From the sequence record PV565008.1: a stretch of 64,000 nt of DNA. One strand, written 5' to 3'. Origin of the DNA: Pseudomonas phage vB_PaePA10145phi1_MKR2. Both the position numbers and the translations under genes were made by a program. Under the pieces are notes generated by a model, which ran no database searches, was not told where the DNA came from, and saw only the letters and a program-made list of their open reading frames with translations. How positions within the stretch are numbered: the stretch's first letter is position 1; each line of letters opens with the position of its first letter. Below, piece by piece: positions 34,197 to 34,277 of the stretch.

Positions 34197-34277
34197 ATAA
34201 TACATTCAAACCATTTTAAACAGTATATTACTAACTTGATATTTAACCTTCAATTAATGTAAAAAGGAATCTATACC
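34197..34277 (+). promoter_or_regulatory. conserved early-promoter element copy (…AAACAGTATATTACTAACTTGATATTTAACCTTCAATTAATGTAAAAAGGAA)
   Basis: About 70 nt identical to 36055-36128; includes the GTAAAAAGGAA RBS. Confidence 0.55.

Follow-up and report, generated by a model that had tools for sequence, protein, structure and literature searches.

Repeated early promoter–leader units of a phiKZ-type jumbo phage as probable dispersed homology for recombination

The early promoters of the Pseudomonas jumbo phage phiKZ were reportedly treated by Ceyssens et al. in 2014 in J Virol. Published accounts (Wicke et al. 2021, PMC8244752; Putzeys et al. 2024, PMC10914365) describe them as a motif of ~ 30–50 nt, and 28–32 of them are reported for this phage (PMC8244752; PMC10914365; PMC13282480). 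The first wave of transcription in phiKZ-like phages would be driven from such promoters by a multisubunit RNA polymerase that, according to the literature, travels in the virion and leaves it together with the DNA. PMC4666361 and PMC13282480 describe phiKZ development as rifampicin-resistant and independent of the host polymerase, and recognition of the early promoters by the virion-packaged polymerase is the accepted inference from the literature on rifampicin resistance and timing. As of 2020, no virion polymerase of a jumbo phage had been purified (PMC7598289), and a biochemical demonstration of promoter recognition by it was not found in the accessible literature. A "consensus early promoter" of phiKZ is already in use as an engineering part (PMC12676376). 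In T4-type phages, promoter-early stem-loops (PeSLs; Arbiol et al. 2010, PMC2839356; Comeau et al. 2014, PMC4122927) are dispersed early-promoter cassettes located 5' of small, uncharacterised genes in plastic regions, and recombination of neighbouring copies leads to loss or replacement of the genes between them.

The stretch of DNA analysed here (the window; 64,000 nucleotides of Pseudomonas phage vB_PaePA10145phi1_MKR2, PV565008.1) comes from a phiKZ-type jumbo phage, with 99.8% identity to PA7 and 99.0% to phiKZ. A unit of 64–85 nt was found directly 5' of four unrelated ORFs, at 18859–18942 (copy 1), 34197–34277 (copy 2), 35697–35777 (copy 3) and 36055–36128 (copy 4), and the last base of every cassette abuts the ATG (18943, 34278, 35778 and 36129), as expected from the initial annotation, which had seen a start codon within ~ 10 nt of each repeat. 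A repeat search placed the four copies in a single 64-nt family, with identities to copy 2 of 95% (copy 4), 73% (copy 3) and 67% (copy 1). Copies 1, 2 and 4 had been described as near-identical and copy 3 as diverged, with conservation over ~ 70 nt around a common core. Indeed, all four are located where they had been placed, but the core TATATTAC is exact in copies 1, 2 and 4 only and reads TATATCAC in copy 3; the second common motif, GTAAAAAGGAA, is present in copy 2 but reads GTAAATAGGAA in copy 1 and GTAAAAAGGGA in copy 4; and copy 1 matches copy 4 over the first 40 nt only and then continues with a leader of its own, which is 10 nt longer and contains a hairpin. Two further blocks, ATTCAAA (20–14 nt 5' of the core) and TTTAA (9–5 nt 5' of the core), are present in 4/4 copies. 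This arrangement agrees with the conserved -10, -20 and -30 blocks of PMC11512511 and PMC7598289 and with the T-rich -20 (TTTAA) and -30 blocks of PMC8244752 and PMC11512511.

Copy 2 (+), with ATTCAAA (-30) from 34204, TTTAA at 34215–34219, the core at 34224–34231, a predicted transcription start site (TSS) at 34238/9 and GTAAAAAGGAA at 34259–34269, precedes a homologue of PHIKZ006 (171 aa, 34278–34793, + strand, phrog_18830). An intrinsic terminator at 35294–35311 (+), equivalent to phiKZ T001 at 3756, closes the 005–008 transcription unit. The diverged copy 3 (core 35725–35732, TSS 35739/40, +) is followed by the PHIKZ010 homologue (86 aa, 35778–36038, +, phrog_26983), which is missing from the relatives ANB1 and SL2. 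Copy 4 (core 36075–36082, predicted TSS 36089/90, +) is followed by the PHIKZ010.1 homologue (49 aa with a hydrophobic N-terminus, 36129–36278, +, phrog_15989), of which three diverged alleles occur among relatives. Copy 1 (core 18879–18886, predicted TSS 18893/18894, +) carries a hairpin in the 5' part of its leader (18893–18913, fold z = -1.95) and precedes a PHIKZ293.2 homologue (45-aa ORF, 18943–19080, phrog_33409) with a terminator hairpin at 19091–19113; this ORF and its terminator (18943–19113, +) form with copy 1 a self-contained module on the strand opposite to its neighbours. All four downstream proteins are of unknown function and have no Pfam match. Since the same unit stands before members of four different PHROG families, paralogy among the genes downstream was rejected as an origin of the repeat.

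The bare 8-mer TATATTAC is not enriched by itself: 10 matches were found in the window, compared to 7.07 expected, and 3/10 lie within ORFs or on the minus strand. A shared 29-mer, TTTAAACAGTATATTACTAACTTGATATT, has three exact matches in the window, all on the plus strand, and none in 100 shuffles. A position weight matrix (PWM) covering -30 to +22 around the core, with which the window and phiKZ were scanned, gave 9 sites in the window and 31–32 in phiKZ, the latter in agreement with the published number of early promoters. All of these sites share one strand, and neither sequence yielded a minus-strand site at the thresholds tried. The four cassettes score 33–47 (46.8, 44.6, 33.0 and 40.8 for copies 1 to 4; copy 2 40.0 in a leave-one-out test) and the maximum on the minus strand of the window is 2.6. 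The extended motif is highly specific.

A fifth site is the promoter of PHIKZ005 (33667–33769, +), in which a terminator hairpin (33667–33688) is followed by an early promoter (core 33720–33727, TSS ~ 33734/5, PWM 44.2). It has only the promoter half in common with the cassettes and is followed by its own, unrelated leader; its phiKZ orthologue is P001 (TSS 2176) in the table of Putzeys et al. 2024. Further members of the promoter family revealed by the PWM scan have cores at 2115, 55287 and 61100, the latter two being orthologous to P012 (TSS 23599) and P017 (TSS 29413) of the same table. An early promoter at 9502–9553 (+, core 9532) belongs to a second upstream class, TTTAAGATC-TATATTAC, and at least two such classes exist among the early promoters, ATTCAAAC...TTTAAACAG versus A-tract...TTTAAGATC.

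TSSs were taken from the published ONT-cappable-seq table (Putzeys et al. 2024, bioRxiv version). The phiKZ orthologues of copies 3 and 1 are listed there as early promoters P002 (TSS 4180) and P135 (TSS 266897), the latter heading the 222-nt monocistronic unit TU207, and the resemblance to the phiKZ early-promoter consensus that the initial annotation had pointed to thereby proved correct. At 8/8 early promoters compared, the published TSS is located 14 or 15 nt from the core start, and the same holds for copy 1 (15 nt); mapped starts are 6–7 nt 3' of the core. For copies 2 and 4, the one cappable-seq table examined gives no TSS at the corresponding phiKZ positions (expected ~ 2679 and ~ 4530). 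This dataset caught just 16/32 known early promoters (PMC10914365) and strong-consensus sites, the PHIKZ076 promoter among them, are also missing from the table; therefore, the missing TSSs are weak evidence. The cassettes share the placement of phiKZ early promoters, on one strand and directly 5' of PHIKZ293.2, 006, 010 and 010.1. By sequence, the four repeats belong to the published phiKZ early promoters and the promoter itself is already known. A literature text search for TATATTAC returned unrelated papers only. The genes of the virion polymerase, PHIKZ178, 149, 180 and 80, lie beyond the limits of the window.

We propose, with a probability of roughly 0.85, that the four repeats are paralogous copies of one unit, consisting of a phiKZ-type early promoter and a short mRNA leader, which acts as dispersed homology for recombination. 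The functional unit appears to span from ~ -34 to the Shine-Dalgarno sequence; the cassette edges match these two limits and, together with the four PHROG families downstream, bear out the duplication of promoter plus leader suggested in the initial annotation. The promoter half (~ -34 to +1) comprises ATTCAAA near -30, TTTAA near -20 and TATATTAC at -14 to -7, with initiation predicted at the second or third base of a conserved TG(A), 14–15 nt past the first T of the core. The leader half (~ +1 to +40) is an A/U-rich, unstructured 5' UTR with the ribosome-binding motif GTAAAAAGG 7–8 nt from the ATG, from which efficient translation of early mRNAs may be expected. Copies 2 and 4 lie inside longer early transcription units, 005–008 (P001 to T001) and the unit running from P002, 5' of 010, to T002, and would therefore serve as extra internal start points, while copy 1 would drive its one-gene, self-contained module. 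Since units of 64–85 nt in the same orientation precede unrelated, apparently accessory small genes, the copies act as dispersed homology for ectopic homologous recombination and short-patch gene conversion, which comparison with relatives bears out.

The similarity of the copies could instead be kept by selection on a functional leader RNA, for example as a translational enhancer or as the binding site of some phage or host factor, rather than reflect a recent duplication or recombination. Such selection is favoured by the recurrence of leader parts elsewhere: the 3' part recurs before PHIKZ106.1 without an early promoter, a shorter form, TTAATCGTAAAAAGGAAAATAC, is found before PHIKZ014 and GTAAAAAGGAA alone before PHIKZ015 and PHIKZ278, and the copy 4 leader of phage OMKO1 was kept after loss of the promoter. 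GTAAAAAGGAA occurs six times in phiKZ, always on the plus strand, and its distance to the ATG is fixed in 6/6 cases (7–8 nt). A folded element is not apparent, however: no RNA structure was found in the leaders of copies 2, 3 and 4 by folding against shuffles, with copies 2 and 4 folding no better than their shuffles (z = +1.64 and +0.92), and a riboswitch or attenuator was therefore rejected. Between orthologues, copy 2 leaders have diverged at roughly the rate of the surrounding region (59/64 positions, 92%, identical between the window and fnug), whereas the paralogous copies 2 and 4 within one genome are 95% identical, and the 010.1 homologue of the more distant phage PA1C has the promoter but a different leader. 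In IMG/VR, the leader pattern ACCTTCAATTAAYGTAAAAAGG gave no match and TTTAAACAGTATATTAC gave 16 single matches in short unrelated contigs, judged consistent with chance; both scans were uninformative. We consider leader selection unlikely as the whole explanation; it is compatible with the unit being a duplicated promoter plus leader and probably accounts for the last 15–25 nt only.

The case for recombination between copies of the promoter–leader unit comes from related phages, in which the flanking genes differ at the cassettes. In SL2, the upstream flank of copy 2 is joined to a cassette with the informative bases of copy 4 and to the 010.1 gene, and genes 006–010 (1.85 kb) are absent. In ANB1, the 5' half of copy 3 and the 3' half of copy 4 are joined at a common AACCT, between TSS and Shine-Dalgarno, and gene 010 is absent; this phage also lacks a 366-nt stretch corresponding to the copy 1 module (window 18854–19219). 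In OMKO1 and fMGyn, copy 4 is reduced to its leader, with precisely the 35-nt promoter half missing, and in Bobae, fnug and Churi the copy 4 cassette is absent altogether. Patchy exchange is visible as well: copy 1 of the window equals copy 4 over 40 nt and phiKZ copy 1 differs at 6 clustered positions, T2P has the PHIKZ076/260 promoter haplotype at the copy 1 site, U1B copy 2 has the PHIKZ216 promoter haplotype, and NK1 copy 4 has an upstream element of the copy 2/3 type. PaZh_1 carries an identical 7-nt deletion in copies 2 and 4, which may be an artefact of assembly or polishing. Among the relatives compared, five gene arrangements of the 005–014 region occur; PA1C adds a sixth context, its 010.1 block being found at another genome location.

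All this might also be seen if the cassettes were ordinary promoters whose overlap with gene-content breakpoints is incidental, as indels are intergenic anyway and arise by microhomology or illegitimate recombination. Early promoters are indeed not the site of most structural differences that separate the window from ANB1 or phiKZ; where ANB1 has lost the 293.2 module, the deletion ends in AT-rich microhomology just beyond the cassette, and the 35-nt deletion of OMKO1 is flanked by short TAC-T repeats. Only 2/14 breakpoints between the window and ANB1 are located ≤ 60 nt from an early-promoter core; a uniform null gives ~ 0.24 expected (our own Poisson estimate, P ~ 0.03, suggestive), but against an intergenic-only null for the same 14 breakpoints the excess is unremarkable. 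Substitution density in promoter windows is ~ 2× background and not significantly raised (P = 0.14 for phiKZ and 0.32 for ANB1). What speaks against mere coincidence is that two independent hybrids end in different cassette pairs, with the copy-specific bases switching once, and that multi-site haplotype replacements over 35–40 nt exactly match distant paralogous promoters. Coincidence is, in our opinion, doubtful. The cassettes as recombination hot spots, a possibility raised in the initial annotation, are supported qualitatively by the SL2 and ANB1 hybrids and by the patchy exchange in other relatives, but not by a statistical excess over other intergenic regions; what these genomes indicate is clustered haplotype replacement at particular copies, and a general hypervariability of promoters is not claimed.

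The repeats are AT-rich and have a TATA-like block with a TTCAAA hexamer upstream, which could make them host sigma-70 promoters read by the Pseudomonas RNA polymerase. The sigma-70 consensus is matched neither in core nor in spacing (just 13 nt from TTCAAA to TATATT), however, the mapped starts lie 6–7 nt past the core, and phiKZ is, from the sources named at the outset, independent of the host polymerase. A sigma-70 consensus scan of 33500–37300 gave 13 sites compared to 12.7 expected, none of them correctly placed in a cassette; sigma-70 promoters are therefore very improbable and this reading was rejected. It is hardly credible that the dispersed, near-identical copies beside variable genes are non-regulatory DNA left by a small mobile element (its ends or remnants, whether MITE-like or the target of a homing endonuclease), given that they have neither terminal inverted repeats nor target-site duplications, share one strand and a constant spacing to the start codon, have edges that coincide with promoter and Shine-Dalgarno limits and belong to a motif family that is the whole early-promoter set of the genome.

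The promoter, a textbook phiKZ early promoter, is nothing new; the recombination aspect is the new part and a modest, incremental one. In the accessible phiKZ promoter papers, no comment on promoter–leader paralogy or on exchange between copies was found, and a literature search for PeSL together with phiKZ gave co-occurrence in reference lists only and no paper describing PeSL-like shuffling. A unit reaching from ~ -34 to the Shine-Dalgarno sequence, with two or more upstream classes, is relevant to the design of early-expression cassettes for the engineering of jumbo phages. Direct repeats of 64–85 nt at distances of 350 bp and 1.85 kb predict spontaneous loss of 010 and of 006–010 in phiKZ and PA7 stocks, and such deletions would bear on the stability of therapeutic phages and on the interpretation of knock-outs.

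In sum, the cassettes do not differ in kind from the phiKZ early promoters, with which they share the species group, the core TATATTAC, the -20/-30 blocks and, for copies 1 and 3 with published starts, the TSS offset. Morons are autonomous units of promoter, gene and terminator in phage genomes; classical ones are known from temperate phages and are expressed from the prophage. The copy 1 module, and this copy only, is alike in having its own promoter and terminator around a 222-nt monocistronic unit that runs against its neighbours and is absent from ANB1; unlike classical morons, it belongs to a virulent jumbo phage and is transcribed from an early promoter of that phage. The early promoters of 201phi2-1 (PMC11512511) and AR9 (PMC5312081) are also AT-rich near -10, located 5' of early operons and attributed to the virion polymerase, but the consensus sequence varies from phage to phage; in the more distant Pseudomonas jumbo phage PA1C, TATATTACAAATGTGATA is kept but the leader is not.

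The closest parallel for the exchange between copies is the PeSLs. These are of the sigma-70 type and used by the host polymerase, whereas the cassettes are of the phiKZ virion-polymerase type, and PeSLs are defined by an adjacent stem-loop terminator, whereas the conserved partner here is the leader with its ribosome-binding region. No terminator-like hairpin adjoins copies 1, 3 and 4 and only a weak minus-strand hairpin adjoins copy 2; the PHIKZ005 promoter and several other phiKZ early promoters have a GC-rich terminator upstream. Excised mini-circles in infected cells or virions are a further mark of PeSLs, with a method for their detection in PMC2839356. Like PeSLs, the cassettes are dispersed before small genes of unknown function in variable regions and occur as hybrids accompanied by gene indels (SL2, ANB1), and as in PeSLs, whose crossovers fall between the -10 element and the Shine-Dalgarno/ATG, so does that of the ANB1 hybrid. 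We lean, at slightly better than even odds, towards PeSL-like cassettes: recombination and gene conversion between copies would be a regular means for Chimalliviridae jumbo phages to acquire, drop and re-wire small accessory genes of the early class and to keep their promoters alike. If true, such behaviour would be described for the first time for promoters that a virion-packaged multisubunit polymerase reads. The promoter-cassette shuffling logic known from T4-type phages seems also to govern how the variable left-end region of phiKZ-like genomes evolves, which would point to a general mechanism shared by large virulent phages that are not related.

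Region 33600-37000 of the window aligned by megablast over its full length with PA7 at 99.8% and with phiKZ at 99.0% identity, and the join of the phiKZ reference lies inside the window, with the right end (PHIKZ265-306 and the tRNA cluster) and the left end (PHIKZ001-038). Four cassette copies were found where the initial annotation had placed them, all on the plus strand and each stopping one base before an ATG: copy 1 (18859-18942, ATG at 18943), copy 2 (34197-34277, ATG at 34278), copy 3 (35697-35777, ATG at 35778) and copy 4 (36055-36128, ATG at 36129). The genes that they immediately precede are homologues of PHIKZ293.2 (45 aa), PHIKZ006 (171 aa), PHIKZ010 (86 aa) and PHIKZ010.1 (49 aa), respectively. 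A repeat search put the four sites into one 64-nt family in which copy 4 (36055-36118) was 95%, copy 3 73% and copy 1 67% identical to copy 2 (34204-34267). The 29-mer TTTAAACAGTATATTACTAACTTGATATT occurred three times in the window, always on the plus strand, and in none of 100 shuffles; copies 1 and 4 share an exact 40 nt, downstream of which copy 1 has its own, longer leader, and the AT-rich core near -10, TATATTAC, reads TATATCAC in copy 3. A Pfam search with the four downstream proteins gave no match; each belongs to a PHROG family of its own, all four of unknown function, and therefore the repeat is not a by-product of gene duplication. At 36289-37035, PHIKZ011 and PHIKZ012 are fused to a single 248-aa ORF, with a 1-nt frame difference to phiKZ near the end of 011. 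The same ORF is carried by KEN51 and, therefore, it is probably a real allele, otherwise a sequencing difference that is shared or lies in the reference.

The whole phiKZ genome was scanned with a position-weight matrix spanning -30 to +22 round intergenic TATATTAC sites. The scan found 29 sites above a score of 18 and 31-32 above scores of 8-14, all on the plus strand; the minus strand gave no site at any threshold. These counts agree with the 28 (Ceyssens 2014) and 32 (Wicke 2021) published early promoters (as quoted in PMC8244752, PMC10914365, PMC13282480). On the window the same matrix found nine sites, with a top minus-strand score of 2.6. The bare 8-mer TATATTAC was not enriched in the window (10 matches vs 7.07 expected); therefore, the core alone is no evidence and the extended motif, whose sites all lie on one strand, is. 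The conserved blocks ATTnAAA, TTTAA and TATATTAC, together with a TG that is conserved five bases past the core, fit the published -30, -20 and -10 regions of early promoters (PMC11512511, PMC7598289). Matrix counts, conserved blocks and published transcription start sites (TSS) for copies 1 and 3 thus bear out the proposed match to the phiKZ early-promoter consensus, and the repeated element is the already published phiKZ early promoter. Its recognition by the virion-packaged polymerase is the accepted model, based on insensitivity to rifampicin, immediate early timing and polymerase injection (PMC4666361, PMC13282480, PMC7598289); our literature search found no biochemical demonstration of this recognition. 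Two upstream classes were present among the early promoters: class I, TATTCAAAC-N-TTTAAACAG-core (~13 sites), includes copies 1-4 and the PHIKZ005 promoter, and class II is A-tract-(A/G)TTT(A/G)AGAT(C/T)-core (~16 sites). A further early-promoter-like site upstream of a small ORF (2085-2136, core TATATAAC at 2115) scored 18.3, which is low within the score range.

TSS were taken from the supplementary table of Putzeys et al. (bioRxiv 10.1101/2023.10.13.562163), in which P135 (phiKZ 266897) corresponds to copy 1, P002 (phiKZ 4180) to copy 3 and P001 (phiKZ 2176) to the PHIKZ005 promoter (window core at 33720); all three are labelled 'early promoter' there and credited to Ceyssens and/or Wicke. 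The TSS was located 14 or 15 nt past the first T of the core at eight of eight early promoters compared, and likewise at copy 1. From this offset, TSS are predicted at 18893/4, 34238/9, 35739/40 and 36089/90 for copies 1-4, with leaders of ~40 nt, consistent with the typical 5' UTR of 31-40 nt reported by Wicke (PMC8244752). The table lists no TSS for copies 2 and 4; this is a weak negative, given that the dataset detected only half (16) of the 32 early promoters known and missed, among other sites with a strong consensus, the PHIKZ076 promoter. Without copies 2 and 4 the motif count falls short of the published 32, which suggests, but does not prove, that they are early promoters. Of the published terminators T001 (phiKZ 3756) and T002 (phiKZ 5540; bioRxiv 10.1101/2023.10.13.562163), T001 is the window hairpin 35294-35311. 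One unit runs from P001 to T001 (005-008) and one, which begins upstream of 010, from P002 to T002; given their placement within these units, copies 2 and 4 would be internal, extra start points. TU207, a monocistronic unit of 222 nt that ends at hairpin 19091-19113, is driven by copy 1 and transcribed against all neighbouring genes, so that copy 1 and its gene form a moron-like module. GC-rich hairpins of one terminator family (CCCTCCCTTCGGGGAGGGCTTTAT and its variants) start at 1724, 6215, 15264, 33669, 35294, 40630, 42310, 55229 and 61052; in three cases an early-promoter core follows after 45-60 nt (33669 to 33720, 55229 to 55287, 61052 to 61100), giving terminator-promoter composites.

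Similarity between phiKZ early promoters is usually limited to about -30 to +10 round the core, and a few pairs extend further. In the PHIKZ076/PHIKZ260 pair it covers 67 nt, and in the PHIKZ005/PHIKZ105 pair it extends upstream and includes the terminator hairpin. The longest pair is copy 2/copy 4 (72 nt at >=88%), which also extends farthest downstream, as far as the Shine-Dalgarno sequence; its similarity has sharp edges, starting at ATTCAAAC (-34) and stopping at GTAAAAAGG. The repeated unit is, judged by these edges, one promoter plus one putative leader, and together with the four unrelated downstream families they uphold the cassette-like duplication of promoter and leader that had been proposed. 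Folding against shuffles gave no structure for the leaders of copies 2 (z = +1.64) and 4 (z = +0.92); a 5' hairpin was found only in the copy 1 leader (z = -1.95). This leader opens with a perfect 8-bp AT hairpin (18893-18913, AUAUUACU/AGUAAUAU), whose 5' arm repeats part of the core (ATATTACTAA, twice, 15 nt apart), which suggests a slipped partial duplication. The leader 3' end is a recurrent translation-initiation motif, GTAAAAAGGAA, present six times in phiKZ, all on the plus strand and all 7-8 nt from an ATG, compared to a composition-based chance expectation of ~0.4. In the window it occurs at 6241, 34259, 35761, 37890 and 39106, with the variant GTAAAAAGGGA at 36110, and the ATGs at 7-8 nt include those of PHIKZ014 and PHIKZ015. 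A promoter-less 27-nt leader fragment, TTAAACCTTCAATTAATCGTAAAAAGG, precedes PHIKZ106.1; just upstream of it, at phiKZ 108976-109013, lies a perfect palindrome (ATTCAAATATAATT...AATTATATTTGAAT), one arm of which is similar to the upstream ATTCAAA block of the promoters. The 010.1 homologue of PA1C, a more distantly related phage, has another genomic neighbourhood and is preceded by a terminator, TATATTACAAATGTGATA and a different leader; therefore, the functional part under deep conservation is the promoter half, and the leader half is in part a shared ribosome-binding module and in part recent paralogy.

The 005-014 region was compared across phiKZ-like genomes. The window, PA7, phiKZ and most of the relatives compared have the order 005-[copy 2]-006-007-008-T-009-[copy 3]-010-[copy 4]-010.1-011-012-013-014. 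Flanking genes, whose comparison the initial annotation proposed, differ: SL2 lacks 006-010 (1.85 kb), its 005 flank leading into a cassette with the informative bases of copy 4 (CATATTT, AAGGGA) and then a 010.1 allele, and ANB1 lacks 010, the 5' half of copy 3 (TATATCACAACAGTGTAATTAAACCT) being joined to the 3' half of copy 4 (TCAATTAAcGTAAAAAGGtACTTTAAAAATGAAAGC). The ANB1 crossover lies in a shared AACCT between TSS and Shine-Dalgarno sequence and, whether read as deletion or insertion, requires cassette-to-cassette exchange. OMKO1 and fMGyn have lost exactly 35 nt, the promoter half of copy 4, and retain its leader; in Bobae, fnug and Churi copy 4 is missing, 010.1 is present as a diverged allele and there is one additional gene of 116 aa. 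Patchy exchange was also seen without gene loss. Window copy 1 equals copy 4 over the shared 40 nt and phiKZ copy 1 differs at six clustered positions; the copy 1 site has the PHIKZ076/260 haplotype in T2P and a mixed form in OMKO1, the flanking tRNA and spacer being almost invariant. Copy 2 of U1B is identical to the PHIKZ216 promoter over 35 nt, and in NK1 the upstream element of copy 4 is that of copies 2 and 3. In PaZh_1, copies 2 and 4 carry the same 7-nt deletion (L045 2060-2165 and 3905-4010) with loss of the -20 TTTAA block, which could be a promoter-killing lesion spread by gene conversion or an assembly/polishing artefact. The copy 1 module (18854-19219, 366 nt) is missing in ANB1, with a junction that lies 5 nt beyond the cassette, in AT-rich microhomology. 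A plausible enzyme for the exchange exists, since phiKZ encodes the nucleus-localised recombinase Nlp1/gp152 (PMC12676376), which may take part in it.

Eight structural differences separate the window from ANB1, and in two of them a breakpoint falls no more than 60 nt from an early-promoter core (uniform null expectation ~0.24, P ~0.03, Poisson estimate); under the assumption of intergenic breakpoints this excess is unremarkable. Substitution density in eight promoter windows was ~2x background, not significant (P = 0.14, 0.32). The specific hybrids show the cassettes to be a recombination substrate; the 'hot spot' of the initial annotation is borne out qualitatively by them, not statistically. 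Further differences were noted. In ANB1, 285 nt stand in place of the PHIKZ022-023 homologues (42711-43686, 976 nt), with breakpoints away from early promoters. A 485-nt segment (6702-7186), near-coincident with an ORF of 153 aa (6693-7154), is missing in phiKZ and ANB1. Two 100% identical tRNA-Asn(GTT) genes (20840-20916 and 22966-23042) lie 2.1 kb apart; at ~20880 phiKZ has an extra 772 nt, where its annotation places the HNH endonuclease PHIKZ296, and 20024-21073 is replaced by 4.8 kb in ANB1.

In sum, these promoter-plus-leader units are paralogous, swap sequence and have mediated gene loss or gain among phiKZ-like phages. The closest match in behaviour are the promoter-early stem-loops (PeSLs) of T4-type phages, conserved cassettes of early promoter and terminator that precede ORFans; recombination among them deletes or exchanges the genes between copies, with crossovers in the stretch from the -10 box to the Shine-Dalgarno sequence or ATG (PMC2839356, PMC4122927). 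Our literature search found no link of PeSL-like shuffling to phiKZ. Unlike in PeSLs, the promoter is not sigma-70-type and no stem-loop adjoins copies 1-4; therefore, the window cassettes are not PeSLs by definition, although some other phiKZ early promoters are, like PeSLs, terminator-promoter composites. The promoter itself is known and already in use as a genetic part (PMC12676376), and cassette exchange is a modest, plausible extension of a known principle.
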